Translations under genes and position numbers: made by a program
Origin: Mobula hypostoma
Lineage: Eukaryota
DNA length: 64,000 bases
Assembly (NCBI RefSeq): GCF_963921235.1
Contig: NC_086097.1
Coordinates: 162,938,001 to 163,002,000 of the forward strand
Direction of reading: 5' to 3'
Shown: positions 3,801-58,800 of the stretch, in pieces
How positions within the stretch are numbered: the stretch's first letter is position 1
How the letters are laid out: each line of letters begins with the position of its first letter
The notes under the pieces: model-generated
What the model saw: only the letters and a program-made list of their open reading frames with translations
What the model was told of the DNA's origin: nothing
The model's database searches: none

Positions 3801-6800
3801 TTACTGATGCAAAGTACAGATGGAGTCCATAGTACGGAGGTTGGTTCCTGTGATGTGCTGAGCTGTGTCCATAACTCTCTGCAGTTTTTTGTAGTCATGT
3901 GCAGAGCAGTTGTTAAACCTAGCCATTAACCATCCACAGGTAACGCTTTCTATGGTGCAATGATAAAATTAGCAAGGGTTGTCCAGGACAAGCAACATTT
4001 CTTTAGCCTTCTGAGGAAAAAGCATTGATGAAGTTTACTGGCCTTGGCATCTACGTGGTTGGATCAGGACAGGCAATGAATGAGTGCTCAGGGCCTTTGC
4101 CCATCTCAGAGGGCAGATGAGGTTTCAGAATATGCCTTCATCTGAAGGACAGGAGCTCTGACAAACTTTATGCCAGCAATCTTGAGTCCCCACATTCTCA
4201 TCAGCTTTTTCATTCTACTCCACACTATGGTCAATTAACCAACCTGAAAACCCACAAAATTGATTTGGAAGCAAGTCTTTAAAAAAAAACACAACTTACT
4301 TCAGGCAGATAACAAGATGAAGAGAAAAACAGTATGGTAAAAAAGATTCAACATTGCTTTATTCACACGAAAGTTCCTATTTCTTTAATGAGCAGCGTCT
4401 TGCGATCTGGGTCCATTGACTTTATTAGACTCAATAGTAAAATTCCTCATGCCCTGTAATTAATAGAGTGTTGAAATAAGTGTTCACAGATCAACACTTC
4501 AACACTTGGGAGAATCTTCTTTCAGTAATTAATTTCTGTATTGTGCAGTTTTTTTTAGAATAAATGGGCTTATAAATTCTTAATGTGACTGTTAATTTTA
4601 CTACATTTCAAATCTTTGATGTAGCTCAAGTGTTCCGCAGAGAAAAACTGCAGCATTCAATCCAATGAACTATGGTAAAGGAGAGTGTAAGAGCATAACA
4701 GTTCCTCGCTCACTGATCTGTGGATCCAAATGGCCTTTCTCGCTGAGGGAGTAATTGTTTTACATCGCAACTGAGGTATGTACTGCTTCTTCACAGCTTT
4801 GACTTGATGGTCACTATCCACTTCAGAATTGAATACAGTTCAACTTCATTTTATCGGAGCCTGAGAGAAGAAATATGCACTTTTCAAAAGTTTGGAAGGT
4901 TTTTTTTTGGTCAGAAAATAAAATGTATTCGGCAACTTGACAGAAGCTATAGGTCCAAAAGCAAAAGTGATCATCTCTGGTTATAGCGATGTGGTGCATG
5001 TATGTTGTTTAATATAATCCAAAATCTATCAAGAACAGAAGCAAGGACAATATTCACTGGGCCAGCCCGTGAGCACTTCCAAGCTAAAAGAATGAGGAGC
5101 TAGCAGAAAGGTGGCAGCTCCAACTAAAGTCTAGGATATTAAAACACTGAGCTGAGTTCAGCAAGTATATACTCCCTTTAAACACTTGAACATTTGATCA
5201 GTCATCCAAAGTGACTGAACGGGTCAAATTAAGGTAGTGTTACACTGCTTTCTGAAATGTCTGCTATATGAATTTCACACTTCCATTTAGATGTCTAAAA
5301 TAAGTGTAGATCAATAACACTACTAGTTCACCATCTTGTTTTTATGGACTTCTACTCCAACAGCAAAATACCACAAACAACAGGAATTCTGCAGATGCTG
5401 GAAATTCAAGCAACACACATCAAAGTTGCTGGTGAACTTTGATGTGTGTAGCAAAATACCACAGTGGCTGCAGGGGTCACAAAATAATGCAGAAGAAAAG
5501 CCCTCAGCCTAAAAAGCAAGCTTCTGTTCTTTTTTCCGCACAGATGCTGTGTGACCACCTGAGATCTTCCAGCATTTTATGTTTTAATTGCAGTTTAGTT
5601 TTTGGTAGCTCTCCATTTTTAGATGTTAAGAATCAAAGTCATAGAGGCTTTGAGCCCACTGTGTCCATACTAACAACTCATTTACAATAATCTCATTATT
5701 ATCTCTCACGTTCCATCAACTCTCTACAGATCCTACCACTCACTTAGACACTGGGGCAATTTATAGCAGCCACTGAATGTACCAATTGTCTTATCTTTGG
5801 GATACTGAAGGAAGCTGAAGCACCAGGAGGAATCCAACACTGTCACAAGGAAAGCATGCAAATTCCACACAGACAGCACTGGAGGTTAGGACTGAACCTG
5901 GGTGTCTGGTGCTGTGAGGCAGCAGTTCCACTGGTTGCCACGTACATTCCTTCTTTGTAGCGCTGGATAAATGCCATCTACCTAGCCCGAGGGAAGCACC
6001 CTGTGCACAGCAGCAGCTGCGCAATTTTGTGACGCAAGGGTTTGTTGAGAATGAGGACGTGAAAGATCCTGAAATGAGAAGTGGGACTTTCAACAGCAGA
6101 GGGAGCAGTGGCTTTGGATTAAGTAACATTTGCAATGAAGGCTTTGGTGTTCACATCATGGGACCAGAGTACGAAGTACAGCACTACGAAGAAGTGGGAG
6201 TTGCAGTTCCACTGCACAATGGAATGGAAGGAATTCTCTCTACTAGTCCTGATGAAGGGTGTTGGCCTGAAACTTTGACTGTTTTGTTTCCTTCCATGGA
6301 AGCTGCCTGACCTACTGAACTCTCCCAGCATTTTGTGGGTGTTCTCTCTCTCTCTCTCTCCCCTAGCATTGAACAGAAGGCTCCTGACCTGAAAGCATAG
6401 GAACATTTCAAGCCTGCCAATACAGGCAAGAGCCATTACTGGGATTTGGCAGCTTAAAAGAGGAGGAAAAGAAAAAACAAGCTATTAGTTTATAGTCAGA
6501 AAGCCCTGAGGTACAAAGCTTTTGCTAAATTACACTAAGTTACATCTGCCAGTGACCTTCATGCTTGAGATGCAATGGGCCAATTCTATCAGTACAAATT
6601 TAAAATGTACGTAAGTGCATTTAATGTTAGAAACTGACCTGAAACCAGAAGAGTCGCCTGAGGACAATAGAATACAGAATAGATGAATGGAATATCAGGA
6701 ATGGTTCCCAGTAATTTGGATTGGTCCGTAAATCAGCCCAGAACCACCACAAATATTAAACCTTAAACATTCAAAACTTAATAAACTGAACAATTTTGTG

Positions 6801-14200: not shown

Positions 14201-17200
14201 GCCAGATATTTCCCCATTATAACAACCAGTGCTAACATCGCCATGTTTGCTTATGACTAATTCTTGACTTGTGAATTGTTAACTTTCTGTTTTTTTCTTT
14301 ATGGCATTTAACGTGTCAGCAATGAGTGTGTGGTCTGTAATGTTGTAAACCTATCGCCATCTCACACTCAAACATTAATTTTTTATGCTTCTACCAAATT
14401 CTTAGAACAGTAGGTCCATGGGGTTATTACAAAGTGGAATAACATTGGTTAATAATCATGTTAAACACAAAGGAATATCTAATATAGCAAATCCCTGGAT
14501 TTTAGGCTCTTCAAAGAAAATTAAAATGTAGGGAGAAGAAGCTTGCAATTTGTGTCATATTTGTCCACTTCTCACAGGACTAATTCCACTCTTCCTAATT
14601 CCAGGTGTGGAGACAAGTGCAAAGATCAAACTGAGGTCATTCTCCTGACTGCAGTGCTCTGTCACCCTGAGTTACAAACTCTCCACCAACAGCATGCTGA
14701 GTAGTTAGTTTTAAAGGGATCAGGAATTAGAAATAAATATGAGTTAGAAGCACAAACACGAGGAAATCTGCAGATGCTGGAAATTCAAGCAACACACATA
14801 AAAATTGCTGGTGAACGCAGCAGGCCAGGCAGCATCTATAGGAAGAGGTGCAGTCGACGTTTCAGGCCGAGACCCTTCGCCAGGACTTTGTTATTACCAA
14901 AGATTAAAAATGGACTAACATTACAATCCAAAGAAGAGCAACTGGTACTATTGATGAAAACAACAAAAACTGCAGCAACATCATGTGGCTGAATGCAAAG
15001 CATTCTCCCAGCAGTGGGCGCCGCTGGGGCCCAAGGGCATTGTGGATGGAAATGACCATGTTCTAAATTGAAACTGTAAATAAATAATAAAGGACTATAC
15101 TATTGCTATAATATGATTTTTTGTAGTTACCGAGTGAACCTCCTTTGGAAAAGGGGGATAAAAGCATTCTCATTACTATACCTTGCATCCAGTCCCAGGG
15201 TCATGACCCCAGTAGTTGGCTTCACAACGATCACATTTCTCTCCCTGTGTGTGTGGTGGGCAGATACACTGTCCAGTTTCTTCTGCACAATTGTTTTGAG
15301 TGTGGGCACAGTCACAAGCTGCATAGGAAATACATGGAAAGAGCTTTTTTCTTCAGATTTACCAAGAAGATTTGTTAAACATATTATACTTCAAAATTTA
15401 GCATTAAGTACTGTGTGACTAATTTTTGTCCATGTTAATACTCTGTGCTGTTTGAATTGAGGACCATTTGTTGATACACAACATTATTTTGTGTTTAATA
15501 TATCCACATCAAGTTCTTCTGTCTGAAACTGGCAAAGCAATTAGCCCATTTATTTGAAAAAAGTATTAACCAGTTTAATATTTTTTGTTAATACAGAGCA
15601 ATTTGATTAAAGTATGGCGAGCATTTGTACAACACTATTGTACAGTTAGCATTCATATATCTGATATCCAAAACTCTGTCGCCTGCATCATAGTTCATAC
15701 CTTGGTCTATTTACTAGTTACTCCTTGTTTGCTGTTCTGCAGGTGGTAATGGTTAAACATCAACATAATTTGAAAATTATATTGCTCTTAGTTTTAACTC
15801 CCTCTATAGCTCCATCTCTCAACATCTCTGTAATCTCCCTCTGGCCTATAGCTTTCAGTTTATGAGTATATCTCTACTTCTGGCCTCGAGAAAATATTTA
15901 AACACCAGCCAAGATCTTAAGCCTTGAATTTCTGCCTGAAGTTCTCTATTAAGGTGCGCCTTGAAACTCATCTTTCCATTATCTGCCTGCCCTCGCCATT
16001 CTTTTTGTGGCTGACTCAAAGTCATTTTACTTGATAATACTCCTCTGAAATAACGTGAGATACTTTGCACATTAAACCCATCATAGAAATAGGAAACTGT
16101 CAATGTTGTTTCAGGGTTTTCAAGAAAATTACTCAAGTTTCTCCACCGATGCCATGGTTAAGCAGCAAGTGGTTAAAATATTCCTAATGTGGCTTATTCA
16201 AAGATCTACACAGCTACAACATAATTCCCCAATGACTGTACTCAACGCCATGGCTGATGTAAGCAAACCTGCTGTGTGCCTTCTTTACTACGCTATTCAC
16301 TTGTGTTGCCACTTTAAGGGAGCCACAGACTTGGTTGTACCTTACGTCTCTCTGTTCTACGCTCCCCAGGGTCTTGCCATGGACAGTGGACGTCCTGTCC
16401 TGGTTTAACTTCTCAAAATGAATCTCTTCACCTTTGTTTTGGTAGAATTTTATTTGCTATTCCTTTTCCTTGTGATCTCTGTACACACTTCTCCTTTAGT
16501 GGGAAGTGGGGGTGGGACTTAGTCTATAGTACAATCCCATCAATGTCATGAATTAAGCCTTTCAGTGAAAAGAAAAACATACTGGATGAATAGTGGGTCA
16601 GGGAGCAACAAAGGAGGGAAATGGACAATCAACATTTTAGGCTGAGACCCGTCATCTAGACGTATCCATTTCCTTCTACAAATGCTAACTGACCCTGTGA
16701 AGGACTCCTGCAGTTTGCTTCTTTATTTCTGCAGATTCCAGCATCTTGCAGTTTCTGGCGACACCGATTGATCCTAGCCTTATGGTTGTGAAAGTCAGAT
16801 TCACATATTGAATATAGGAACATCAGGCTTGAACTTGATCTTCCATTCAACAAGACCATGACTGATGCTCTACTTCAAAAAAAGGGTGCCTAAGGGTTGC
16901 TCTGGACTCGATGAGCTGAAATGCTGGTTACGGTGTTGTATCGCTCAATGTATTCATTAATTGCAATAAGAATATCCATTTAAATTAATATATGTGTAGT
17001 AGCCTTCAGTTGAAATGAATAGTCAAAAGTGTTCACTTGCACCATGTACTTCCAAAAATAGTTCAAACACTCACGTGAACACCCACCGTCCTGGAATCCA
17101 TAAAAGCCATGCGCACAGTGGTCACACTTCTCTCCACTCACCCCTGGCACACAGTGACACTGCCCATCGTCACCACAGTCCTCAGAGATTGAGCCTAATC

Positions 17201-29200: not shown

Positions 29201-31786
29201 AAGTGCTAATTGGCTTGGGAGTCCTTGGCGCGATTCACTGAAGGTTAACTTGCAGGTTGAGTCGGCAGTAAGGAAGCCAAATGCAATGTTAGCATTCATT
29301 TTGAGAGGACTAGAATATAAAGGGAAGGATGTAATGCTGAGGCTTTAGAAGGCATTGGTGAGACAGCATTTGGAGTATTGGGTGTGCAGTATTAGCTCCC
29401 TTATCTAAGAAAAGGTGTGCTGGCATTGGAGAGAGTCCAAAGGAGGTTCACAAGAATGATTCCAGGAATCAAAGGTTTAACCTATGAGGACAGTTTGATG
29501 GCTCTGGGCCTGTACTCATTGGAGTTTAGAAGAATGAGGGGGATCTCACTGAAACCTATCAAATGTTGAAAGGTCTGATAGAGTGGAGGATGCTTCTTAT
29601 AGTGGTGAGTTTCAGATCAGAGAGCACAACCTCAGGCTAGAAAGAAGTCCACCTAGGACAGAGATAAGGAGGAATTTCTTCAGTAAGAGGGTAGTGAATC
29701 TGTGGAATTCATTGCCACGGTCAGCTGTGGAGACCAAGCCATTAAGTATATTTAAAATACAGGTTGATAGGTTCTTGATTAGTCAGTGTCAAAGGATACT
29801 GGGAGAAAGCAGGAAGATGGATTTCAAAGGGATAGTAAATCAGCCATGATGGAATGGTGGAGCAGAATTGATGGGCCAAATGGTCTAATACTGCTTGTAT
29901 GTATTATGGTCTTATGAACCGTATGAACTTGCAACTGCCACCATTTACTGCTGAAATCTGGAAATATACCCGGGCACAAGAGATTCTGCAGATGCTGGAA
30001 ATATTGAGCAACACACACAAAATGCTGGAGGAACTCAGCAAGATAGGCAGCATCAGGCAGGCCTGAAACTTTGACTGTTTATTCCCCTCTGTAAGTGCTG
30101 CCTGACTTGCAGAGTTTCTCCAGCATTCTGTGTTGCTCAAGATTTCCAGCATCTGCAGAATCTCCTGTTTATAGTTTGTTACTTTTGCCTGTAGATGGCA
30201 CTGCATGTCAACAGGCTATTTGAACAGGGACATTGACAAAATTTTTGTGGAGCATTCAATCCAATTTTATTCCTATAAATCCTCACAGATACATCAGTCT
30301 AACAGGCCACTGATTCTCTTCAGTCAGTACGCTTCTACAAGCTAGTTGTCAAATAGTCATTATTCCTCAGACAAAATGCTCTACACCTTGACAGCGAGTG
30401 AGTCTGGGCTTAGTATTTTGATTAGAGTCGGTCTAATGGTTTATCTTTCAATCTTCAAATCTGTTGAAAATGACAACTTTACCACATCCTCCTTTTTACC
30501 TCAGCACAGAAGATCTCTCCTAGAGCACCGACTGAACAAGATTAAGTTTTTAAATTTTTCCAAAACTATCCCATTCGCTACTGAATTCTATTTGAGAATG
30601 GTCTACAGATTTGTTTTGAAATAATTATTGCAGAGTGGAAATAGGAAAAAGAAGAAATGCAAGGCAGCCATTATAAAATGCTGAACAACCCTGTCTCTGT
30701 AATGGAAAATCAATGGATTTGAGTTGGCGTATGGTCTACTTTTCAGTACTTTCTTTCACACTGGATCAAATAAAATTGGAAAGTGGAGCCAAAACAAACT
30801 TGCACAAAGATTTGCCAGGAAGTGCAATGGATGTCATTTCACAGGTTGATGTAAGATTTGGCCAAGATCTTTGGTAGTCCTCCCAAACCCACAAACCTGA
30901 CTTCTATAACTGATGACAAGCTTCACTAGCACATAGAAATGTTCAGGTTCCTTTCCAACTCACAGACCATCATGACTTGGAATTCCACTACTAGAGCATC
31001 ACTGTTGTTTGGCCTTAATCCTGGATAGTTTCACTGAAAGGAGTCCCAAGTTCAATTAGAATTCAAGATGGCCATTGAGGCCCAAATGCAATACAAATAT
31101 TGGAACTCAGAACAGGAATCATAAAACACTACAGCACGGGAACAGGCCCTTTGGCCCATCTAGTCCATGCCGACCTGTTTATCTGCCTCACTACACTCCG
31201 AGTGAACAACTTCCCTTGACGTTCCCTTAAATATTTCACCTTTCACTCTAAAGTCGTCGAGCTTGTTGAGCTGGGAGCAGTTCAGCTGAACCTGAAACAC
31301 CACAAGAGCATTGCCAAAGAAAGGTCATTTCATGCATAGATATACAAGTGGGAGTTGAGTATTTTCAGAAAAGGCACTCAGCAACAATGTACAAGCTGCT
31401 CAGTTGCAAGCTCGCCTCCCACAGCTAGACATAAAATCCAGGCACTTTAATCAGTTAAGCAACATAAACGAAACCGGGTAATAGAGGAAGGAGGAAAGAG
31501 ATGGGAAAGTGCGCATAGGTTGAAGTAAGAGTAATGTACAGGATGTTAAACACAGGCCCAGACAGGCCAGCACAAATGGCTTGTTACTGGGCTGTAAAGT
31601 TCTGTATATATGTCAACCACAGGTAATGGATGGGGTGTTTTCACAGACAACCTGAATTTGATTTTGTCCTTAAGTTGGAAAATACATAAAAAGCACTCAA
31701 TATGGTAGCCATACCTCCATCGTGTTGTAGTGAATGGCATAAAACAGCACATATGTCTGATAAGAAAGAACGATTGCTAGAAGTGA

Positions 31787-40800: not shown

Positions 40801-43800
40801 GGCACCTTTTGAGGGCTCTGAGAGTATTGGGAAGAGGGAGTTCCAACAAGGGGCGCATACGGTCGGGGTCAGGGCCAATGACTCCATTCTCCACGACACA
40901 CCCAAGGATAGCAAGTCGGGTGGAACCAAATACACACTTGTCCTTGTTATAGGTGAGGTTGAAAGATTTGGCCGCTTGGAGAAATTTTTGGAGGTTGTTG
41001 TCATGATCCTGCTGGTCGTGACCGCAGATGGTGATGTTATCCAGATATGGGAACGTGGCCTTCAGTTGGCACTGGTCCACCATCCGGTCCATTGCCCTCT
41101 GGAAGACAGATACACCATTCGTGACACCAAAGGGGACGCGCAGGAATTGATAAAGCCTGCCGTCTGCCTCGAAGGCAGTGTAAGGGCGGTCCTCCCAGCG
41201 GATGGGGAGCTGATGGTAAGCGGATTTTAGGTCTATGGTCGAGTACACCTTGTACTGTGCTATCTATTGACCTTATCTGCGATGTGGGGTAGAGGGTACG
41301 CGTCGAGCTGCGTGAACCTATTGATGGTCTGGCTATAGTCCACGACCATCCTATTCTTCTCTCTGTTCCGAACAACCACCACCTGCGCCCTCCAAGGACT
41401 TGTGCTTGTCTCAATGACCCCCTCCCTGAGCAGCCGCTGCACCTCCGACTTAATGAAGGCTCTGTTCCCCACGCTGTACCTCCTGCTTTTAGTTGCAACA
41501 GGTTTACAGTCGGGGGTCAGGTTGGCGAACAGCGGTGGGGGAGGGATCCTGAGGGTGGAGAGGCCGCAAGTGGTGTCGGTAGTGTGGCAGTTGGCATGAT
41601 GTTGGGTGGGATGCGCGGGTCGGTGTGTGTGTCTGGTCAGTAGCAGGGTACGTGACATACCTCTACAAAACAGGGGATTTATGACAGTAATTGGCAGGAG
41701 GGGCCCATCATACTTCATTGTCACGCTTTTCAGGTGGCTCTGGAAGTCCAACCCCAACAGCACAGGAGCACACAGTTGAGGCAAGACCAGTAACACAAAG
41801 TCCCGATATTCAGTGCCCTGCACCACTAGTGTCGCTACACAACCCCCCCCCCCCCGGGTGTCTGCTGTATGCGACCTGGAGGCCATGGTGACCCTCCGAC
41901 TTACCGGCCATATCATGAGTCCACAATGCTGCACCGTGGCCGGGTGGATAAAACTCTCCGTGCTGCCTGTGTCAAACAGGCAGCTTGTCCTGTGCCCCTC
42001 CACCAGGATGTCCATCATTGACCTTGCGAGCTGGTGGGGAGCGCTTTGGTCGAGGGTCACGGAAGCCAGGGTGGGGTCGCTGTCTTGGTCCGGCGTGGTG
42101 GGGTGCCCCGTGAGCACCCGTTGGTCGTAGGCGGTGGGAGGTGGCGCCGACCAAGATGGCCGCCCCCATGTCTCGCATGTGATGGTGGCGTGCAGGGAAG
42201 ATGGCGGCAGGCAAGATGGCGACCCCCACGTCTCGCACGCGGCGCTGCTCCATCCCGCTCACGGTTTTGACTTACAGGCCTTGGCGAAGTGGCCCTTCTT
42301 TCCGCAGCTGGAGCAGGTAGCTTGTCGGGCCGGGCAGCGTTTCCGGGGGTGCTTCTCGAGTCCGCAGAAGTAGCACTTTGCGGACTCACGACTGGTGGCA
42401 GCCAAGGTCGATTCGCTGGCGGGTTGCGGGGTCTGCGGCACCCACGAGGCCATCGGGGGATCGCGTGCCTGGAGAGCCTCGGAGTTATGCAGAGCGGCCT
42501 CCAACATATCAGCCAGCTCCATCGCCAAACTTAGGGTAAGATCGGCTTTTTCCAGCAGTCGCTGGCGCACGTACACTGACCTGGTCCCCGTGACGAAGGC
42601 GTCCCTCACTAGGAGTTCTGCATGCTGCACCGCCGTCAGCTCCTGGCAATTGCAGGCTCGCACGAGCGTCCGTAGGGCCTGTACGAACTCAGCACTCAAT
42701 TCCCCGGGGCATTGTTGCTGTGTCGCTAAACGGTGCCGAGCATAGACGCTGTTTATCGGCCGCAGGTATTGCCTTTTGAGTGCGTTCATTGCGCCGTCGT
42801 AGTTCGGCTGGTCTCTGATCAGCGAATAGACCCGTGGACTGACCCTGGAGAGGAGAACTCTGCGCTTCGCTACGGGGTCGGTCGCTTTGATCTCCTCTAG
42901 GTACGCTTTGAAGCAGGCCAGCCAGAGTTCAAAAGCGTTTCCAGCTTCAGGTGTTTGCGGATTGAGGTCTAATTTTTCTGGTCTCAGGGACTGTTCCACG
43001 TTTTAAAACGTACAGCAAATAAAATTGAAGCACCTTCAATTACTCCAAAAGACTAAGGTTTGGTAAAATACTGAAAGGCTTTTATTCGCTGTACAATACG
43101 ACCTCCACAGTGAGTGTCTGCCCCCGGACTGAGGGGGAGGGGCAAGGCGAACACTTTTATACAGGACTCTGTGGGAAGAGCCACAGGGGCAGTCAGCAGA
43201 GGGGTGTGTCCAGACAGGTAACCCAGTTACAACATATATACATGGTTTACCACATAACTGAGGACCCTTCTGTCCCCACAGTGTAACATGGTGCTCTAAC
43301 AACGCTCTTCTGGCCAATATTTGTACCCTACTGACTACTGGGTGCTTACAACAATGCAACATGCAAAGCCTTGCTGTTCACAAAGTAGCCACCACTACAA
43401 CAAACTACAGATGGCTTCTTTGCCTAGATTCTACAGCTCCTGTAAAATACATTCACAATACAAGTTGAGGTTGCACAGTCAGTCATCAGATACTTTGATG
43501 ATTGATAATGTGGCACGCCCAAAGGTTGTGCATAGCATAACAAACACCTTGCATCAGAACAATAGCAGGCTTACTTGTTAGAGGGAATGGTCAGTGGGCA
43601 GGCACAAGGTTTGCAGTCCTCTACAGTCCCTCTGCTGGGATCACCATATAAACCTGGGAAGCACTGATCACAGGCTGGCCCAGTTGTGTTATGTCGGCAG
43701 CCCTGGAAAGTACAGAGTTTCAGTAAAAATGCAAACAAAACTTCTGATGGTAACTATGTCTCCCTCCCTCCCCCTTGTTAAGCAGAACAACTTTTCACAG

Positions 43801-46800
43801 ATATTCAAATATTGGGCCTGATCTTCCATTGGCTTGAATTTAGTGGACGCCTGCCTCCACACCTCTGTGCTTGTGTGACCTTCTGCTTGTGGCAACATGG
43901 CATGACATTTGCAGTGGAGGAGCTGTCTTAGCACAGGTAACCTGGTGTGCTCAGAGAACGACTTTGACAATCAGTAAGGATCTGCGCAAAAACTAGTCTA
44001 CTGAGAGTGTTCTTCAAAGCTCGAAAATGTCAAGGTCATGTATTTAATAACACAAGGGCCTAGTTGAAAATAAAATGTCAGATGATTAAAAATATTAATT
44101 AGTTGAAGTATTGAATGTTTGAAATATTGAACACTACATGTCTTTTACATTTATAATACATATATACACACACACAAAAAAAATTAGAAATAATTAAATA
44201 TATTGAAGCTAGTTTAATGGGAAAAGAAACTTCCATTTCCTTTCCCCCTTCTAGCTGTCTCTCACTGAATGGGAATAATGTGTTTGCAGTAGAATGTGCA
44301 AACTTGCCAATCTGCGATTAGGGAAGCTTGTGAAAGTCCCCACTACCTCACTAGGCTCATAATTGTAGCCAGGAGGTCAAATGGTCTCCTCCTGGAGGAC
44401 GGTACTGCTGGGTTTTCAATAGGACAAAGGAGTTCCCTCCTGGTGTTTGTGCTGCTACAGGATGGAAATTCTGGGTAACTGTAATTCATAGAAAACAAAT
44501 AGACCAACACTGATTCTAAATCTAAATCTCCATCCCTTACAAATTGAATTATGTATCACAAATACATACAATGCAATAGAACGCGGGGACCATCTCCCAT
44601 TACTGGTGCAATTGTGATATAACATTATAGCATTGCCAACACACAGGAAATTGCACATCTCCACAAAAATTTCTGCTTTTACAGTTTCACCTGACCAATC
44701 GTACTTGAGATAACTTGCATTATCAAGAACTCACCAAGCAAGTACCATTAATGTCACATTCTGTAGCATGCCCGTTGCATTCACACTGTTGACAGATGCC
44801 GCCAAATAAGATTCCATCAACACGATAAAAGCCTGTGATGCAGGACTGTTGGAAACAATAATTAACTGCATAAAAATACACAGTACTGTGTTCCGGTTCA
44901 AGATGGTGCCAGTGAAGCTCGGCGACTTCTATCTGGTGACCAATGAAACAAAGAGAACAACTAAATACTTGGTTAATCACTCTTTTCCTGGCAAACGATC
45001 CTGTAACAAGCCTGTAACTTCCCTTTGGCCTTGGGAAGTAATTCGAGCGGCAGAACCAAGGCGAAGCACCTCTGATTTTTAAAATTTTCTCCCCATATAC
45101 AAAATAGTCCACGCATTTATTCCTTCTACCAAAGTGCATAGTAATGCACTTCATTGCATCATATTCCTTCTGTCACTTCTTTGCCCATTCCCCCAATCTG
45201 CCTGCCCTTCTACAGAACTGTACTTCAACATTTCCAGCCCTTCCACCCACCTTCATATCGCCTGCAAACCTGGCCACAAAGCCATCAATTCCTTTATCTA
45301 AATTGACATACAACATGAAAAGCAGTCCCGACACATACCCCTGCGGCACACCACTATTAACTGGCAGTCAACCAGAAAAGGCCTGCTTTAGTCCCATCCT
45401 TTGCCTCCTGCCAATCAGCCAATCTTCTATCCATTCTAGTAGCTTTCTCATACTACCATAGGCTCTTACTTTCTTAAGCAGGCTCATGTATGGCATCTTG
45501 TCAATGGCCTTCTCAAAATCCAAATAAATAGCATTCACTGACTCTCCTTTGTCTATCTTGCCTATTATCTCCTCAAAGACTTCCAACAGATTTGCCAGGC
45601 AAGATTTCTTCTTTTGAAAACCATGCTGGATTTGGCCTATTTTATCATGTGCCACAGGTACCCCAAAGCCACATCCTTAAAAGTCAACTCTAACATCTTC
45701 CCAAACACTGAAGTCAGGCTAACTGGCCTATAATTTCCTTTTTTCTGTAGCCTGCCTTTCTTGAAGAGTGGAGTGGCACTTGCAATTTTCTAGTCCTCAG
45801 CAACTGTGGCCAGGTTTGCAGATGATACGAAGATGGGTGGAAGGGCTGGAAATGTTGAAGTACAGTTCTGTAGAAGGACAGACAGATTGGGGGAATGGAC
45901 AAAGAAGAGGGAGTTAGATATGGCCCTTGTGGCTAAAGGGATCAGGGGGTACGGAGGGAAGGCTGGTACAGGGCTCTGAGTTGGATGATCAGCCATGATC
46001 ATACTGAATGGCGGTGCAGGCTCGAAGGGCCAAATGAACTACTCCTGCACCTATTTTCTATGTTTCTAACCTTTCCAGAACCTAGTGATCCTTGAAAGAT
46101 CATTACTAATACCTCCACAATCTCCTCATTTGAGTAGGACGTATGTCAAACTGGGATTCTGCCAGCCTGGTACATTATGAAATGGTCAAAAGAAAGGAGT
46201 TAATTTAGTCTCATGCTGTGAAGAGACAATAAACAGGACTTAAGTTTTACTATTCAAACAATTGCTTGAAGATTCTCTTTTAAAATATATACTTCAGAGT
46301 GAAATTTCTCCAAATAATGAAAAAAGTGTCCAAAAAAATACACCATTTGATAATGTTTCCAATAAGATTACTAACAGGCAAAATTCTCACCTTCAGGTGT
46401 ATGTGTATTAAGTCGCATGTGCCACAGGAGTCCATTGCATCTATTTTTCAACTAGGTTATTTAAGAAATGTAGCAATTACAAAACTAACTATTGATTTTC
46501 TTCAAATCAAAGATTCCTTCTAGCATCTTTTCCTAAGAGGTAAAGAGAAATTTATTCATAAACGTGAATTTAACTGAATTTAATCCCTGGCACTGATGGC
46601 TCTGGGAGTCTCCAGACAGGTGACACTACCATCAGCAACACCAGTTCCAATGACCCCGAGTGGATCCAGAACGTGGATTCTACCAACACCAATGCCAGTT
46701 TCTACAACCACAGACACTGTCAAACTGCTAACTGCACAGCCTCTAGCTCTGGCTCCAGCCTGGACCTTGACCGCCAGCAGCTCCAGGCAAAGGCTTTACT

Positions 46801-49800
46801 TGCTGCTGGGCCCTCTTCTTCCCTTCCCCCACCACTACTCTCCAGCCCCGTGTCTCTCAGGCCCCACCATCAGCTCTTGTGTCCTTGGAGCCTCCATCTT
46901 CCTCCCACCCTACTTTCATTGAACGCCCCAACCCTCCATTCTTCTCTGACACAATCAGTTCTTTCCCCTCTCTGATCCTAGATCTAATCCTTGGCATGTC
47001 TTAACCATTCCCTCCGACCTCCCCCTCCCTGAGGCAGAATGTTCTGTCCCCAGTACAGCCTCATCTTTGTCCCCCTTTGCCCGCACCTCAATGAGTTCCA
47101 CCCGCCACGATGTTGGGCTCTTCTTCTGTTGCCTCCGTCTCCGAGCCCACTTCTTTGACAAGGATTCCACACCTCACACTGGTGACCTCTTCTTCCACCT
47201 TCAACCCTCCTCCTATTCTTGGTCACCCCATTCTGGTTTTCTGCCTGCTCTGGATCTTTTCATCTCAAATTACCACCTCATCTTCAGCACTCCACTCTCC
47301 TCATTGAACCTTACCCTCTCTGAATGCATTACCCTCCACTCTCTCCAGACCAATTCCAACCCTACCATCAAACCCGCAGACAAAGCGGGGTGCTGTTGTA
47401 GTGTGGCGCACTGACTTCTACCTTGCTGAGGCCAGGCGGCAACTGTCAGCCACCTCCTCATACCTACCCCTTGAAGAGGACCTCACTCTGGACTATCAGA
47501 AAACTGTCTCCAACACTGGAGAACTCTCACCCACTGCCATCAAACTCATAGTTCCCTTACCCTGCACTGCTCACTCCTACCTCTTACCCAAGAACTACAA
47601 ACTGGACTGAGCAGAAAAGTGTATTGTCTCTGCTTCCTCTTGCCTCACTGAACTCATGTCCTCATACCTTGATTCCATTCTATCTCCCTTAGTTCAGTTC
47701 CTTCTCCACTACATCCGCCATACGGCTCAAGCCCTCAATCTCCTCCATAACATTAAATTTCCTTTCCATGACCGCCTCATTTTCACCAAGCATGTTCAGT
47801 CCCTATACCCCGCTTCCTTCTTGACAAAAGGACCAACTAGTTCTCCTCCTCCTTCTGGCAGAACTGGTCCTCCCCCTCAATAATTTTTTCTTCAGCTTTC
47901 TCCAAACTTTAGGGGTAGCTACAGGCACCCACATAGGCCCCACCTATGCCTCCCTCTTCATTGGCTAGATAGAACAATCCATGTTCCAAGCCTGCCCCGG
48001 TAATACTTCCCAGCTCTTCCTCTGCTACACTGATGACTGCATTGGTGCTGCTTCATGCACTTCTGCTGAACTTGTCAATTTTATTAACTTTGTCTCTAAC
48101 TTCCACCCTGCCCTTAAATTCACTTGTCTCTTACCTGACACCTCCCACCACTTCCTTGATCTCTCTGTCTCCATCTCTGGAGACAAGCTGTCAACCGACA
48201 TCTTTTATAAATCTACTTATTCCCATGGTTATCTAGACTATACCTCTTTCCACCCAATCTCCTGTGAAAATGCTATTCCCTTTCCTCAGTTTCTTTGCCT
48301 CTGTTCCCAGGATTCGGCTTTCCATTCCAGGACATCAGACAGCAGCTTGTGGTCGAGCCCACCAGGGGATCAGCTATTCTGGACTGGGTGCTGTGCAATG
48401 AACCAGAACTGATCGGAGACTTTAAAGTAAAAGAAGCCTTAGGGGCAAGGGATAATAATATGATAGAATTTACCCTGAAATTAGAAAAGGAGAAGTTAAA
48501 ATCAGATGTATCAGTATTACAGTGGAGTAAAGGAAATTACAGAGGCACGAGAGAGGTCTTGGACAGGATTGATTGGAAAAGAACACTGGATGGGATGATG
48601 GCAGAGCAGCAATGGGGTAGTTGGAAGCAAATGATAAAATAGATTGTTGTCAACATGGTTTCCTCAAGGGAAAATCTTGCCTGCGAAATCTGTTGGAATT
48701 CCTTGAAGAAAGATAGACAAAGGGGAATCACTTGATGTTGTGTGCTTGGATTTTCAAAAGGCCTTTGACGAGATGCCACACATGAGGCTGCTTGACAAGC
48801 TACGAGCCCATGGTATTACAGGAAAGGTTCTAGCATGGATAAAGCGGTGGTTGATTGGCAGAAGGCAAAGAGTGGGCATAAAGGGAGCTTTTCCTGGTTG
48901 GCTGCTGGTGGCTAGTGGTATTCCACAAGAGTCTGTTCTTTTTCTGGACCAATTCTTTTTATGTTATAGCTTAATGATTTGGATGACGGAATTAATGGCT
49001 TTATTGAAAAGTTTGCAGCTGATACAAAGATAGGTGGAGGGTCAGGTAGTTTTGAGGAAGTAGAGAGGCAACAGAAGGACTCAGACAGATTAGGAGAATA
49101 AGCAAAGCAGCAGCAAATGGAATACCATGTCGGGAAGTGTATGGTCATGCACTTTGGTAGAAGAAATGAAAAAGGTTGACTATTTTCCAAATGGAGAGAA
49201 GATGCAAAACTCTGAGGCACAAAGGGATTTGCAAGTCTTTGTGCAGGATTCCCGAAAGGCTAATTTGCAGTTTGAGTCTGTAGTGAGGAAGGCAAATGCA
49301 ATGTTATCATTCATTTCAAGAGGACTAGATTATAAAAGCAAGTATGTAATGTGAAGACTTTATAAAGCACCCGTGAGGCCTCACTCGGAGCATTGTGAAC
49401 AGTGTTGGGCGCTTTAGCTGAGAAAGCATGTGCTGAAACTGGAGAGGGTTCAAGGGAAGTTCAAAAAATGATTCCAGGATTGAATCACTTCTCAGATTAG
49501 AATGTTTGATGGCTGTAGGCCTGTATTTACTGGAATTTAGAAGAATGAGGGGTATTGAAACCTTTCGAATAGTGAAAGGCCTTAGTGGAGTTGATGTGGA
49601 GAGTATGTTTCCTATGATGGGAGTGTCTAAAATGGAAGACACATCCTCAAAATAGAAGGGCGTCCTTTTAGAATGGAAATGAAGAGGAATTTTTGTCTGA
49701 GAGTGGTGAATCTGTGGAATTCTTTGCCACAGGCAGCTGTGGAGGCCAAGTCTTTATGTATATTTAAGACAGAGGTTCATAGATTCTTGATTGGTCAGGA

Positions 49801-52800
49801 TCTTGGGACTGAGAGGAAAAAATGGATTGGCCATGATGAAATGGTGGAATAAACTCGATGGGCCAAATGGCCTACTTCTGCTCTGATAATAATAGTGAAG
49901 CCATTGGTTTTTGTTTTTTTTTATTGTCACATATATCAAGATAAAGTGAAAAATTTTGTTTTGCGTGTCATCTATAAAGATTATTTCAAAACACAAGTAC
50001 GTTGAGGTCGTACAAAGGAAACAGCAATAACAGTAAGCAGAATAGAGCATTACTGTTATTGTTAGAGAGCGTGCAGTGCAGGTAGGCAACAATGTGCAAG
50101 GGCCATTAAAAATATGCTGGCATTGAAGGCAGTTCATTCACTAGTCTAACACATAAAAAATATGAAAAGGTAAATAAATTTACAAACGTTGGGAAACCCA
50201 AAGTGGGCAACTGGATGGCAAGGAATTTTTATCTGGGAATTAATAAGCCATTACGTAGCTCACCATAAGTGGCATACAAAGCATGGAGATACAGAATGAT
50301 ACAGCCTGCAGGAGGATGCTCAAAAAATTATGCCCTGATTGCTTCTTTAATACAACACTCTAATTAATTAATCTCACTCCCCTATTCTTTTCCTTTTGCC
50401 CTGTAGACTTCTCCTTTTCCTGTACTTGCCTAATTCCTTTTCAAAGTTCTCACTAAATAAGATGCCACTACATTCTCAGACAGAAACTCCAGAACAGTCA
50501 GCCAGTTCCCTCAAAATCAAATAGCAAGGAAAACCAATCATTTGAAGAATATGGGATGAAACCAAGAAATATTTAGCAACATTTATGTTGAGAAAAACAG
50601 GACATCTATTATTTTCTTGGTTGAGCTAAGGGCTTTCTACTTTCTACTTGGGAAGGGAGGAAATCTTTGTACAACTGGGGATAAACTCTGAGGTTAAGCC
50701 AGCAGTGCAAGGCGAAAAGCTCTCTGAAATATAACAGGTACTGCTCCCTTCTAGTCCATTTCACTGTACTGTTTTAAAGATGCAGCTAAGGAATGAGAAT
50801 TTTCAGTGTTACCTCACAGGAAATGCCAGTGTAGCCCAGAGGACATTCACAGTGTTCAACATCCACTGCAGGAAGAACGTCGATGGCATTTGGGTTTGCT
50901 ACGTCCAAAGTGACAGAACTCAACCTGAAATGACAAAGATTGGCATAATTCTCACAACTAACTATATCAAACAGATAGAGCAGAGCATCTATGGGCACCT
51001 GTGTTTTGGAAGTCGGATTGAGTAACAGTTACAGTTTTATTAAAAGTTAGACGTTTAACCAACGATACAGCAGCAGCCATAACCACTCTTGCTAGCATTA
51101 ATTCTGTCAAATATTATTTTTTGACTGAGTTTCACAACTTCGCACAGTGGGATTTGAACTCATGATCTCTGGAACCCTGGTTAACTACTACAACTTCTAC
51201 ATTGCACAGAAGTATGTCTTAAGATACAATTGATAGTCTGAAGTAGTAAGGTTGTCAAAGTTCTGTAATTTGCACTTACCGGTTCCACAACAATTTGTTA
51301 AATAATACACATATCCTGAAAACTTTGCCTGGATTTTGGAAGTCATTGACTATTATTCCATTTGAATTATTTAACTAGACAGAACACATTTAAAATATTG
51401 AGATTTTTAAAGTAATTGAGGGAAGAAATTAATTAGTTCATGAGATAACAAGCAGTTAACATATTCATGGCAAAGCTTTGATGATCATTTTGCATTGACT
51501 AATTCATAAAACTGTCTCGATTGAATTCATCAGCAGGAGCACACCCCATGCCCACTGCTTTGCATCTTACTGAAGTAACATAAAATGTACAAGAGCATTC
51601 TGCCCAACATGTTTGTGCTAGCCAAAGAAGTGTTACCTGATTTAATCCCACATTAATCTTTGAGGTCCTCACTACTCTTTTGCTGTGAAACAAAACAGTT
51701 TAAAGATTTATTACAGCTTCTGAGAATCTCTTCATCTCTCTTTCTTTAAGATGCTTTTAATATCACTAAAACCTAATTGATTTAAAGAGTTTGCTCAATC
51801 AGAGCTCCACAAGGTTCATTCAAGATTATACCTCTTAAAAGAGAACCCAGTCAAATCAATTGCCTCTGCAGTGGAAGAAGCTATACCTGCTTCCCAGGCT
51901 ACCCCATTCACAAGTTTTGGTTGGGTAACTTACAACCCTATGATATGGACATTGAATTTTCCATTTTCAGATCAAACCACCCCCCCCCCACCCCCATGTT
52001 CAACTCCCATGCACATTCATCTATCCAGCTAGTTTTCTTCTCCCTTTGTTCACCTTTCCCATCCCTTTTTCCACCCTGTATATAACTGCTATAAGGGTAA
52101 AATGACACTAATAGCAGTTATATACAGGCCTCCAAACAGCAGCTGGGATGTAGACTACAAGTTGCAGCTGGAAATAGAAAAAGCATGTCAGAGGGAAAAT
52201 GTCAAGATAATTATGGGGGATTTTAGTATGAAAGTGGATTGGGAAAGTCAGGAAGGTAATGGATCTCAGGAGAGGGAGTTTGTAGAATGCCTACAGGATG
52301 ACTTTCTGGAGCAGTTTGTCCAGAAGCCCACCGGGGGACCGGCTGTTTTGGATTGGGTGCTGTGTAACGAACCTGAGGCGATTAGGGAGCTGGAGGTAAA
52401 GGAACCCCTTGGAAGTAGTGACCATAGTATGATTGAGTTCAGTTTCAAATTAGAAAAGGAGAAGCTGGTATCAGGTGTATCGATATTTCAGTGGAACAGG
52501 GGAAATTACAGTGGCATGAGAGAGGAACTGGCCCAAGTCGATTGGAAAAGTAAGCTAAATGGAGGGACGGTAGAGCAGAATTAGATGAAATTCCTACAAG
52601 AAATAAGGAAAATGCAGGAAAAATATATTCCAAGCAAAAAGGAAATCATGAATGGAAAAATGCCACAAATGTGGCTAACGAGAGAGGTTAAGGCAAAAAT
52701 AAAAGCAAATGAGATGGCGTACAAGGAAGCAAAAATTAGTGGGAAAAATGAGGACTGGAAGACTTTTAAAAACTTACAGAAGGAAACTAAGAAAGTCATT

Positions 52801-55800
52801 AGGAAAGAAAAGATGAATTATGAAAGGAAGTTGGTGATTAACATAAAAAAGGATACTAAGAGTTTTTTTAAATACATGAAAAGTAAAAGAGTGACAAGGG
52901 TAGATACGGGACCGATTGAAAGTGATGCTGGAGAAATTATAATGGACAGCAAAGAGATGGCGGAGGAACTGAATGAGTATTTTGCATCAGTCTTCACAGT
53001 GGAAGACATGAGCAATATACCTGATAGCCAGAGGTCTCAGGGAATAGAATTAGGTACAGTCAAGATTACTAGAGAGAAAGTGCTTGGGAAGCTAAGTGGA
53101 CTAAGAATAGATAAGTCTCCCGGTCCGGATGAGGTGCACCCAAGGGTTCTGAAGGAGGTGGCTTTGGAGATTGTGGAAGTATTGGAAATGATCTTCCAGG
53201 AATCAATAGACTCTGGCATGGTTCCGGAGGACTGGAAGGTCGCAAATGTAGTTCCACTATTTAAGAAAGGAAGCAGGCAGCAAAAAGAAAATTACAGACC
53301 TATTAGTCTGACATCGGTTGTTGGAAAGATATTGGACTCAATCCTCAAGGATGAGGTTATGAAATACCTCGAGGTGCATGACAAGATAGGCCGAAGCCAG
53401 CATGGTTTCATGAAGGGAAGATCCTGCCTCACCACTAAGATTGACAAGGGAGAGGCTGTGGATGTTGTGTATTTGGATGTTCAAAAGGCCTTCGATAAGG
53501 TGCCGCATATGATGCTGCTGAATAAGATGAGAGCCCAAGGAATTATAGGAAAGATATTGAAATGGGTGGAGCATTGGCTGATAGGCAGAAAGCAAAGGGT
53601 GGGAATAAAGAGATCCTATTCTGATTGGTTGCTGGTTACTAGTGGTGTTCCGCAGGGGTCGGTGTCGGGGCCGTTTCTTTTTATGATGTATATCGATGAT
53701 TTGGATTATGGATTAAATAGTTTTGTGGCTAAGTTTGCGGATGACACCAAGATAGGTGGAGGAGCAGGAAATGTTGAAGAAACGGAAAGGTTGCAGAGAG
53801 ACTTAGTCAGTTTAGGAGAGTGGGCACAGAAATGGCAGATGAGATACAACGTTGACAAATGTATGGTTGTACATTTTGGAAGAAATAATCGGGCAGATTA
53901 TTATTTAGATAGGGAGAAAATTCAAAAATTGGAAGTGCAAAGGGACTTGGGGGTCCTCGTGCAGGATACCCTAAAGGTTAACCACCAAGTTGGATTGGCG
54001 GTAAGGAAAGTGAATGCTATGTTGGCATTCATTTCAAGGGGAATAGTGTATAAGAGCAAGGAGATGTTGATGAGGCTCTGTGGGGCATTAGTGAGACCTC
54101 ATTTGGAATACTGTGTGCAGTTTTGGGCCCCCTATCTTAGAAAGGATGTACTAATGTTGGAGAGTTCAGAGAAGATTTACAAGGATGAATCCTGGAATGC
54201 AAGGGCTAACATATGAGGAACGTCTGTCGGCTCTTGGACTGTATTCATTAGAGTATAGAAGAATGAGAGGGGATCTCATAGAGACATTTCAAATGTTGAA
54301 AGGGTTGGACAGAGTAGATGTGGAAAGGTTGTTTCCCTTAGTGGGTGAGTCCAGGACAAGAGGCCATAGTCTTAGAATTAGAGGATACCCAGTTAAAACA
54401 GAGATGAGGAGAAATTTTTTTAGCCAGAGGGTCGTGGATTTGTGGAATTCATTGCCACATACAGCTGTGGAGGCCCGATCATTGAGGGTGTTTAAGGAGG
54501 AGATTGACAGGTATCTAATTAGTCAGGGTATCAAGGGATATGGGGAAAAAGCCGGAAATTGGAACTAGATGGGTGAATAGTTTAGCTCATGGGGGAGCTG
54601 CGGAGCAGACTCGATGGGCCGAATGGCCTACTTCTGCTCCTTTGTCTTGTGATCTTGTTCCATCTGCTATTATCCACCCTGCCCGATTCCAGCGCTGTCA
54701 TCTACCAGCCTCTATTCCACCCCTTGTACTGTCATATACTAATAGTATTTCCTCTTCCCTCCCAATGCTGACCTCAGTGACATACCCCTTTTGTCTCTAC
54801 AGATGCTGCCTGCTCTTCCAGCTTTATTTTTATATTTATGTTTTAGATTCCAGCATCTGCAATTTCTTTTACATTCATACCCAGGAGGTGATACTACCAA
54901 ATCTGCTGGTCGGTACAATTCAGTCCAACAAGCATAGCTTCTCATGGTTTTTTTAATGATTTAATTACTGCATTTTCTAATGACAGAGAAGGGAAACGCT
55001 TTAGTCCATGAAGCCGTTGCGGGCTTACAGAGCAATCTCATACCCACTAATTTCCTAAAACCTATTTTTCCCACATTCCCATCAGTTCCCTACCGCTCCC
55101 ACCACTCATTCCACTTACAAAGGGCAATTACTGTACCAATGTATACGTTTTTGGGAGTAGACAGGAGCACCTGGGGAAATACATGGTCACAGGGAGAATG
55201 TACAAACTCCATGGACTCTGTGTGATTCAGGATATGGATGGCAATATTATGGACGAGTTCTGTATTTAAGGCAAGTAGAAAGAAGAGGGATAAGCAAGGA
55301 ATGTTTAGGAATACTCAAGATTGGGGTGACCACAACAGGCAATCTGAGAAAGTTTAAACTGGAGTTCAGGGAATGCAGTGAAGATAAGAGTAGCGCACAC
55401 AAAATGCTGGTCAGGCAGCAGCTAAGTTCAAAATGAAAGAGTCGGCAATTTCAGGCCTAGACCCTTCAATCTGGTCCTGCTGGATTCCATGCAGGAAGAA
55501 TGTTCCTGATGGCTACAGAACCCAGAACCAGTGGTCACAATCTATGGATAATGAAAATGCCAGGTAAGAGTAAGGTGAAGAGAAACTTCTGCTCCTATAA
55601 TGTGGTGAACCTGTAGAATTCCCTACCACAGAAAGCAGTTGAATCCAAATCATTAAATATATTAAATAAGATATAGCTTTAAGGGACAGAAGGATCAAGA
55701 AAATGAGAAAAAGGCTGGAATAAGGTATTAATTTTGGAAGGTCAGCTATGATCATATTGAATAGCAAAGTAGGCTTAAAGGATTAAATAGTCTACCACAG

Positions 55801-58800
55801 CTTAACACATCATGGTAACCAGTCTGCCCTCTATGTACGCTGTTTACATTTCGCACTGCCCCTGTACAGCAGTCAGCATAAAGACCCCATCCACCTCAGA
55901 CATTCTTTTTCCCGCCTTTCTCATTAGGCAGAAAACACAAAACTCTGACAGCATGTACCACCAGGCCAAAGGATAGCTTCTACCCCGAGGTGCTTCTTCT
56001 TCTAGGTACATGTGACAACAATAAACCAATTCCAATTCCAAATTTCGATAACAACAGGAATTATACAGATGCTGGAAATTCAAGCAACATACATCAAAGT
56101 TGCTGGTGAACGCAGCAGGCCAAGCAGCATCTATAGGAAGAGGTGCAGTCGACGTTTCAGGCCGAGACTCTTCGTCAGGACTCATCGAAGGGTCCTGACG
56201 AAGGGTCTCGGCCTGAAACGTCGACTGCACCTCTTCCTATAGATGCTGCTTGGCCTGCTGCGTTCACCAGCAACTTTGATGTATGTTGTCCAAATTTCTA
56301 TGTCTGTTTTCTAAACAGAACAACTGCGTAGAACAACAAGCCCATCAGGCCTGCTCTACTTTAAATAAGATCAGGGCTGATCCCATCTTGGCTTCAAAGC
56401 CACTTTCCTGTTGTCATCCCATAATTGTCAAGTTAGAATTTAAATGTCAGATGTAATACTGAGTTGGCCACTTTAACTCATGTGTATTGGTCTTGTATAA
56501 AGCTAGATAGCTTTTGATAGTGTTTTAAAAACATCTCTCCAAGAGTTTTGGATTTGGATCTACAACCTCAGTTGCTTACGGCAATTTTTAGGATTATCCC
56601 ATCGGAAGCAGGAAATATTCCTGTTTCCGCTCAACATATGATAGCCTTTTCGACCTTACTGGCTAGGAGAGCCATTTTATTGGAGTGGAAGGATTCTAAT
56701 CCACCTACGGTCTTTTATTGGCTCTCCTCCATTATGTCCTGTTTAAGTTTAGAGAAAATAAGAAGTCGGACATTTGATACATCCTTTAAATTTGAACAAA
56801 TATGGTGACCTTTTATCCAATATTTTCATCTAATTTGATTTATTACTCTTTCAAGTGGATTTTTTGAGGTTTTAGATTTGATCAGAAAGTTTTTCTCTCC
56901 TCTTTTTTTGGTTGTATCCTCAAAATGGACTGCCCAGTCCCTTTCCTTTGTTTTGTTTGTTTTTTTTTATATAGTGTAGTGGGTTTTTCCCCCTCTCTAT
57001 TTAAAATCCATTTTTTTTCCTTTCTCCTTTTAACTGGTAAGAGGAGAATTGTTTTTTTTATTATATATTTTACACTTGTTTAACAATATCTATGATTTTG
57101 ACAGTGTCTATTTTAATTTTGGTTACCGATATATATATTCCAACAAATCCTCCTCTTGATTGTATTTGATTGTATCTATGCTTTTTTTAAATCAATAAAA
57201 AGATTAATAAAGAAAGAATTTAAATGTCAGCCTCAGCCTTGAACATATATAATGAATCCATCTCCACAGCTCATTGAAGTAGAAAATTCCAAAGACTTAC
57301 AACACTTGGAGAGAAGAAATTCCTCATCAATTCTATTTGCAACAGGCAACCCCCATTCTCAAACCATACCTGCTAGTATAAGATAGCCCCATGAGGGAAA
57401 TCAGTCTCTCGGCTTATACTCTTCAATTCCCTACATAAGCCAATTTCTTTCAATAAGAACACATCTGTTTTATCAGGCCTAATATCCTTTCAATTTAGAA
57501 AACAACCTCTGGTGAACTCCCACTGCACTGCTTCAATATGAGCCAATTTATCCTTAAATATAGGGACCAAAAGCAAATGCAGCAGTGCAGCTGTGGTCTC
57601 ACAAGGATTCTTTTAATCCAGTTGCATTAAAATTTCCCAACTCGATATTTGGACAAACAGCCTGACAGTTCAGAAGCAGATTGGGGGGGGGGGAATGAAG
57701 AAAATTATGGCATAGAGGACCATACAGGTATGTACCTGAAGACATGCCATTGCTGGTCATTTTCAGGCTATGATTACACAGGAGCAGAAGCAGACAACTA
57801 TGTTGAAGGAGAATACAGTGACTAAGCAAGTCAAAGACTGCAGATAGTTTGAGAAGGATAAATTAACTTGGACTCAATTACAAAGGATATAATTAATGAC
57901 ATTAGGAAAAACTGATTTGGTATTTTACTGGTCTCAACTTCTGGTTTTGCACCCTCATTGTTAGATATTCACAATGTGGAACATTGAGATTTTACGTTGA
58001 ACAGCATACTGGGCGGTGACTCCTAACACTCCATCCAAGAAAATGTGAGGTATAGAGCTGAACGTATAACACTGTAGCTCTTGAAAGAATTAAATCCACT
58101 TTTTGCACATGCTCACCTGTATTGAGCCTCTCTAGCGCTGTTATACTTGGCCCAGATCTGCAGCTGCGTCACATTTGCTAGAACAGTCATCAATCGATCT
58201 CGGTCTATTCCATTATTCGTGTTGAGGTCCACGAAGTTCTCAGGTAGCAAGCGAAGTGCGACTGATTGTTTGTTGTAAGGCTGGAGCAACAAGCCACCAG
58301 GCCCTGTGCTGAGAGCACGACCATTGCCCTGAGTGACCAGAATAGGCATTTGTCAGTTTTTAATGATTGACAGCATTTTCAGTGTCCTTTATTCAGAATA
58401 AAGTCATGATTAAGTGAATCATCACGCAATATAAATAAAGACATTGGAATGAGTGGTACTACATTTGTGTTAGAAATGTTTTAAAATCTAATATAAAAGA
58501 AAAATCTGGCACTTAGCACACAAGTTGCATAAAAATTGTGATTTTCCCTCTGTGTGCCTGATAAAGCAATGTACAGAATACCTCAACCAAGAGCAAAACA
58601 GTACAGTTCATGACATAAATCAGTGATACTAAACCTGATTCTGATTCCTTTTGAGACCCTTCTGAGACTGTCGCCGGCCATGCATCACCTGGGAACACAG
58701 CTATTCACACAGATGCAGGTATTAATGACCTTGTCCTCTGTGTGAAGACATTACCTTAACCAGGATGCTGAGTTGGTTATTCCTCTCAATACAGTCATGA

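Follow-up and report, generated by a model that had tools for sequence, protein, structure and literature searches.

Architecture of the locus

The window, by which we mean the whole 64,000-nt stretch of Mobula hypostoma contig NC_086097.1 analysed here, contains a palindromic insertion within an intron of a minus-strand laminin gene. The palindrome is almost certainly a truncated insertion of a Penelope-like element (PLE), and its arms are described below as parts of the 3' pseudo-LTR (pLTR) of such an element. The features of the locus are as follows.

50925..58116, minus strand: host intron of 7.2 kb in a laminin alpha-1/alpha-2-class gene; the exons on either side correspond to residues 352-410 and 410-449 of P0025, and the intron ends are GT and AG
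56037..56046, plus strand: left target-site duplication, TCCAAATTTC; an older repeat has a short tandem tail that runs into the first bases of this duplication
56047..56049, no strand: GAT, 3 nt without match to the family end on comparison with the copies at 5376 and 14752; probably untemplated
56050..56084, minus strand: PLE 'tail' of 35 nt, the extreme 3' end of the element, on the long arm only (compare the 30-40 bp tail in PMC8557442 and PMC11167929)
56085..56182, minus strand: long arm, 3' part of the pLTR, with its 5' end at AGTC, the first base of stem I
56147..56182, minus strand: minimal type I hammerhead in the same sense as the laminin pre-mRNA; its core is intact, and cleavage is predicted between 56151 and 56150
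56183..56191, no strand: junction filler, CAT + CGAAGG, read from the sequence
56191..56226, plus strand: minimal type I hammerhead of the plus arm, with the consensus features in PMC4209133
56192..56288, plus strand: short arm, 3' part of the pLTR, without tail
56289..56298, plus strand: right target-site duplication

The 242-bp insert (56047-56288) was bounded by exact 10-bp direct repeats (56037-56046 and 56289-56298), a 10-mer that occurred twice in the window, and its two arms of 97 bp each (56085-56181 and 56192-56288) were identical at 96 of 97 positions, the sole difference lying at 56171; the coordinates and arm identity given in the first-pass annotation were thus confirmed. The 3' ends of the arms face outward, and the left arm is 35 nt longer than the right. 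The insert was predicted to fold with -216.6 kcal/mol (z = -29), and none of 200 shuffled sequences was equally stable. Between the arms, the filler together with the following GTC repeats CGAAGGGTC, positions 56186-56194 being the same as 56199-56207, which suggests a templated slip with GTC microhomology. On its left side the insert adjoins the tail of an older repeat (about 55950-56041), probably the 3' end of a LINE.

Regarding the host gene, an exon at 10.5 kb matched the laminin alpha-2 L4 domain (E 7e-10), and a Pfam search did not recover the laminin exons of the window. The earlier placement of the element in LAMA1 pre-mRNA therefore holds as far as an intron of a minus-strand laminin gene is concerned, the assignment standing at the level of the alpha-1/alpha-2 class and not of LAMA1 specifically.

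Hammerhead motifs in the arms

The pattern CTGAYGA..GAAAC was found three times in the window against 0.43 expected, and two of the three occurrences fell in the two arms. Manual parsing, guided by the features described in PMC4209133, gave for the plus arm a stem I of 4 bp (56191-56194 with 56223-56226), CUGACGA at 56195-56201, one extra unpaired A, a stem II (56203-56206 with 56211-56214) composed of G.U, G-C, G-C and U.G pairs under a 4-nt loop, and GAAA-C-GUC with a palindromic ACGU and without loop 3. This parse puts the predicted cut after 56222, exactly where it had been proposed. All of the type I features inspected, namely CUGANGA, GAAA, NUH, stems I and II and a palindromic vestigial stem III, were present in the plus arm. 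On the minus strand the core was likewise intact, but the change at 56171 introduced an A.C mismatch into stem II (+3.3 kcal/mol versus -2.0 kcal/mol in the plus arm), so that the earlier description of hammerheads on both arms stands for the cores and fails for the minus-strand stem II.

An Infernal- or RNAmotif-type search had been recommended as a check, and Rfam did not bear the motif out: the insert gave no match at the gathering score, hammerhead models were absent even at E<=10, and the matches obtained at this threshold (e.g. mir-3926) were set aside as hairpin-shaped chance matches. Across eight copies in the window, which are few and of mixed subfamilies, G5, G8 and AAA were invariant, and other core bases were mutated in old copies. 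Pattern scans of metagenomes, viral contigs and prokaryote genomes returned 0 matches; a second metagenome pattern hit 32 loci, none of which aligned beyond about 26 nt, and these were rejected as chance.

The locus shares with the minimal hammerheads of metazoan PLEs, as described by Cervera and de la Pena (2014, PMC4209133), the type I topology, an unpaired base after A9, a G at 10.1, the lack of loop 3, the palindromic 15.2-16.2 positions and a stem I of 4 bp. It differs from those described there in having G.U instead of G-C at 10.1-11.1 and a stem II of 4 bp, and in being known from sequence only. According to the same source, minimal hammerheads are inactive as monomers and of low activity as dimers, such ribozymes need a second copy, and dual motifs occur close by on opposite strands besides many single motifs from truncated PLEs; dimer cleavage is attributed to Lunse et al. 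in PMC6765202.

A Penelope-like origin and the putative parent element

The assignment to a PLE was made because the architecture of the locus equals the published signature of PLE insertions: inverted pLTRs with an inverted 5'-truncated partner, a 35-nt tail at one end only, and an exact 10-bp duplication. PLE insertions, according to Craig et al. (2021, PMC8557442), are often adjoined by a 5'-truncated copy in inverted orientation and carry a tail of 30-40 bp at one end, and Arkhipova et al. (2013, PMC3846280) ascribe target-site duplications of 8-10 bp to such units. The head-to-head inverted 5'-truncated copy, the one-end tail, the duplication of about 10 bp and the hammerhead within the pLTR are common to the locus and the endonuclease-bearing (EN+) PLE units in these two descriptions, whereas the locus lacks an ORF and is reduced to a pair of pLTR stubs, each ending at the 5' edge of the hammerhead. 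Both arms correspond to the 3' end, or pseudo-LTR, of one PLE family, which was inserted twice in head-to-head orientation. This signature, together with the features in PMC4209133, upholds the PLE origin, the minimal type I hammerhead and the inverted terminal arrangement that the first-pass annotation had put forward.

As for the parent element, a decayed reverse transcriptase (RT) at 46965-48346 retrieved 24 relatives, of which the named ones came from rays and sharks. The CX2-5CxxC linker, which by its definition in the literature precedes GIY-YIG and marks Neptune and Nematis PLEs, occurred in P0001, P0002, P0003, P0014 and others, and P0014 and P0017 matched GIY-YIG weakly. The C-terminus of P0017 back-translated to the hammerhead at 29 of 33 nt (best of 245,672 windows), as did that of P0004 at 22 of 24 nt (best of 327,302 windows); this link between ORF and pLTR relies on two gene models that read past the endonuclease, no full-length element carrying the exact pLTR having been seen at the DNA level. 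These sequence features suggest that the parent is likely a Neptune-type PLE, the choice of Neptune over Nematis being our inference, made without a tree. In the anole element Poseidon_Ac (Frangieh et al. 2024, PMC11167929), the hammerhead overlaps the ORF start, whereas the likely parent would combine the linker of the Neptune/Nematis type with a hammerhead after the ORF.

At the protein level, neither the arm nor 25010-25240 aligned significantly to the 24 RT relatives when compared with shuffles, and 25010-25190 may represent a UTR. Pfam did not recover the decayed RT of the window, and a literature search on shark and ray PLEs gave no relevant title among the 20 listed. The decayed RT is truncated by another repeat at 48341. 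P0002 and P0004 carry database names of kinase-domain and chitinase-domain isoforms, yet their sequences are PLE RTs, and they are probably mislabelled gene models.

Other copies of the family

A profile search of the window detected 19 arms at E<0.01 (10 of which had seeded the profile) at 14 loci, including six head-to-head pairs, and none in the reversed control. Short-read contigs matching an 851-bp stretch numbered 54,400, 33,729 and 14,293 in the DNA of three organisms, the depth lying overwhelmingly on the arms. The summed contig depth is not a copy number, and the family is clearly very large. Two copies in the window deserve separate description.

5362..5463, no strand: second young insertion of the same subfamily, with a 14-bp duplication, a tailed 62-nt arm and a 12-nt inverted tail-less arm, no hammerhead being left
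14752..14887, minus strand: single-arm copy running from the tail to AGTC, with a mutated core (CTGGCGA); no target duplication was found at this copy

The insertion at 5362-5463 starts at the same tail base as the palindrome, its short arm ends at most 2 nt from the same boundary, and its tail is 37 nt. The family is further represented by four older head-to-head pairs, at 8228-8371, 13008-13190, 16579-16755 and 29975-30169, the last of which retains the tail on both arms. In the old pairs at 8.2 kb and 16.6 kb neither arm contains the other, their boundaries being approximate. The hammerhead cores of the older copies have decayed.

The two variants shared by the arms, T56090 and A56123, made up 20% and 32% of the family depth in organism A (run X1); in organisms B and C the corresponding shares were 3% and 2-13%. 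Being not private to the locus, these variants mark a subfamily, and the earlier deduction that both arms derive from one template overreaches, a single molecule not being proven; rather, the shared variants suggest a young subfamily and a recent insertion, in support of the youth first proposed for it. No empty site turned up among the best 15 of 403 joints, a filtered set, and the contigs of organisms B and C stop short of the junction. Arm-to-arm junctions elsewhere accounted for 13 of the best 15 of 403 joints, and all of them differed from the junction at the locus. Likewise, the six pairs of the window and these 13 joints, which are the copies that the comparison covers, all differed, where a MITE or another palindrome moving as a unit would leave many copies of identical ends and centre. 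Since the junctions differ among copies, the palindrome likely arises anew with every insertion and is not itself the unit that is copied.

The stem I boundary

Five of the 19 window arms start at position 1-2 of the profile model, and only one has pyrimidine-rich sequence upstream. Among the 13 arm-to-arm joints, six go to 56192, a count biased by the reference, which ends at the 56192 base, and based on the best-supported 15 of 403 joints, with four of the six flagged 'between: not known'. In all 13, one arm starts within the first 15 nt (uniform null < 1e-6), and in a second joint table 5 of 12 rows go to 56192 with 1-4 intervening letters, all ending in A. Hundreds of contigs continue upstream of stem I with a pyrimidine-rich consensus (507 in X1). 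That arms often begin at the first base of stem I hints at a defined RNA or cDNA end, and the boundary could arise from a defined RNA end, from RT drop-off at the pyrimidine tract, or from a splice-site effect.

In the old copy at 25010-25251, a pyrimidine-rich stretch that ends in CCAG and resembles a 3' splice site lies ahead of the hammerhead position; for D. virilis, PMC4209133 maps the intron end to the 5' end of helix I. We also considered arms ending at the predicted cut, which two strong joints (56147 to 56192 and 56150 to 56197) would fit, yet a microhomology of 3-4 nt accounts for them as well, and they were given no weight.

Formation of the palindrome

The mechanism that we favour, with some reserve, is double priming. 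A GIY-YIG endonuclease would nick both target strands 10 nt apart, giving rise to the duplication, and each nicked strand would then prime cDNA synthesis on uncleaved element RNA, as extrapolated from a related PLE in vitro. Left priming would occur at the outer start and include the tail, and right priming 35 nt inside, perhaps aided by base pairing between the tail and the target overhang. Both cDNAs end at the base of stem I of the hammerhead, these end points being seen directly in the sequence, and their 3' ends would finally be joined via a short templated slip at the GTC/GAC microhomology, recopying CGAAGGGTC. Precedent comes from the anole PLE protein Poseidon_Ac (PMC11167929), for which cutting and extension of both strands, two RT starts that bracket and thereby define the tail, and the use of uncleaved RNA as template are described.

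Consistent with an aid from the overhang, the bottom strand of the right target duplication (56289-56298) can pair in register with the first 10 nt of the tail RNA through 6 Watson-Crick and 3 wobble pairs, a quality reached by 0.1% of the 127,980 10-mers of the window, in a single case spotted post hoc. At the 5.4-kb insertion the corresponding pairing covered only 3 + 2 of 10 positions, which 35% of random 10-mers equal.

A comparable process operates in L1 twin priming, where two target ends prime on the element RNA and produce an inversion joined by microhomology. Priming and microhomology are similar in the two cases; the L1 arms are not known to overlap, whereas those of the present locus overlap nearly fully. 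A search for literature linking Penelope with twin-priming found none.

The palindrome could instead have been made by fold-back, in which one cDNA snaps back at stem I, slips once to leave the filler, copies itself into the second arm and joins the target at the tail boundary. The locus itself fits this course and double priming equally: the short arm is contained in the long arm here and at 5.4 kb, the arms share their variants, the filler can be copied from the arm itself, and self-priming was proposed for palindromic PLE junctions in PMC3846280. Fold-back would, however, require a separate cause for stopping at the boundary of the tail, where RT starts in vitro according to PMC11167929, and it cannot yield the old pairs at 8.2 kb and 16.6 kb, in which neither arm contains the other. 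Because of these two pairs we prefer double priming and regard fold-back as the less probable course, with an appreciable share of the probability. Somewhat more doubtful still is a discrete uncleaved RNA of about 135 nt, with its 5' end at the first base of stem I, that would serve as the template of the family in the manner of a SINE-like PLE parasite and have the palindrome as one of its products. The arms (5 of 19) and joints (6 of 13) that start at the stem I boundary speak for such an RNA; longer copies are nonetheless common, as the upstream-running contigs indicate, RT drop-off at a U-rich tract or microhomology could give equal ends, and the joint rows are selected and subject to the reference-end bias.

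We consider it very improbable that the locus represents a self-propagating, non-autonomous palindromic element whose ribozyme is regulated by the antisense arm, as the first-pass annotation held. The insertion is young, with a clean duplication and both cores intact, and tandem non-autonomous PLE derivatives are described in bioRxiv 10.64898/2026.07.22.740005; these non-LTR retrozymes resemble the locus in being non-coding, PLE-derived and equipped with a type I hammerhead. In that description, however, retrozymes are direct tandem repeats with at least two hammerheads on the same strand, not inverted pairs, whereas the locus is an inverted pair with one hammerhead per strand. Moreover, no second copy of the junction occurred in the window or among the 13 joints (from the best 15 of 403), the antisense precedes the sense arm on both strands, the minus-strand stem II is broken, and the older cores have decayed; with junctions differing from copy to copy, the notion of a palindromic unit that propagates as such found no support. 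An assembly or fold-back sequencing artefact is hardly credible. None of the 32 contig pieces listed spans the spacer or the right junction, so that the check in short reads suggested earlier succeeded only for the left junction, which was bridged by a 77-nt short-read contig with 0 mismatches at flank-level depth (run X1, which may be the assembled sample). An artefact is made unlikely by this contig, by the exactness of the duplication and by old, diverged copies built in the same way, and family-typical ends, collinear intron flanks and the occurrence of the design in three organisms likewise argue against it.

If the uncleaved RNA of about 135 nt were the main template of this very large family, the RNA or cDNA end would be set by a hammerhead that is folded or protein-bound but does not cut, and the inner RT start would be chosen by the target overhang through its pairing with the tail; the countless stubs would then be a natural record of how the PLE inverted repeat and tail are formed. 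Young stubs with clean ends could serve to decide between double priming and self-priming as the origin of inverted pLTRs and tails. Regarding the role of the hammerhead in PLEs, both arms appear to have been copied through an uncut ribozyme, stopping at its outer edge and not at the cut site.

Transcription and the predicted fate of the ribozyme

Owing to the head-to-head order, transcription of either strand reaches the antisense arm before the sense arm. Folding of growing transcripts predicted that the core is paired once made, with a stem II probability below 1e-18 within the full element; the core would thus zip into the hairpin and never fold as a ribozyme. As the antisense arm comes first, the core is paired when made and each strand has one sense copy, the ribozyme is predicted to be permanently buried and not switchable, contrary to the antisense switch envisaged before. 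Within the laminin intron, the hairpin is predicted to be inert double-stranded RNA, and editing or small-RNA production from it is possible. PLE protein assists hammerhead cleavage in vitro, as reported in PMC11167929.

On the whole, the locus is quite probably a dead-end 3'-end (pseudo-LTR) stub of a Neptune-type PLE, probably generated from two RT starts, and it carries its hammerheads as passengers that are predicted to stay trapped in a hairpin of 97 bp. Taken alone it matters little, being one more intronic stub of an abundant retrotransposon.

In contigs elsewhere, joints from 56225 to 56192 (X9) and from 56227 to 56192 (X5) return from the hammerhead end to its start; such contigs may contain hammerheads in direct tandem, an arrangement that could give an active dimer.

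Neighbouring repeats

Several other repeats were observed in the window. An LTR retrotransposon occupies 38800-43255; its 234-bp repeats are 96% identical, and its RT/RNase H lies on the minus strand. A LINE with endonuclease and RT domains is present at 52033-54656. A 103-nt piece of a LINE is present in inverted orientation at 45176-45278 and 45805-45907 (93%), and an unrelated, MITE-like palindrome with 108-nt arms that are 93% complementary is found at 22120-22351.
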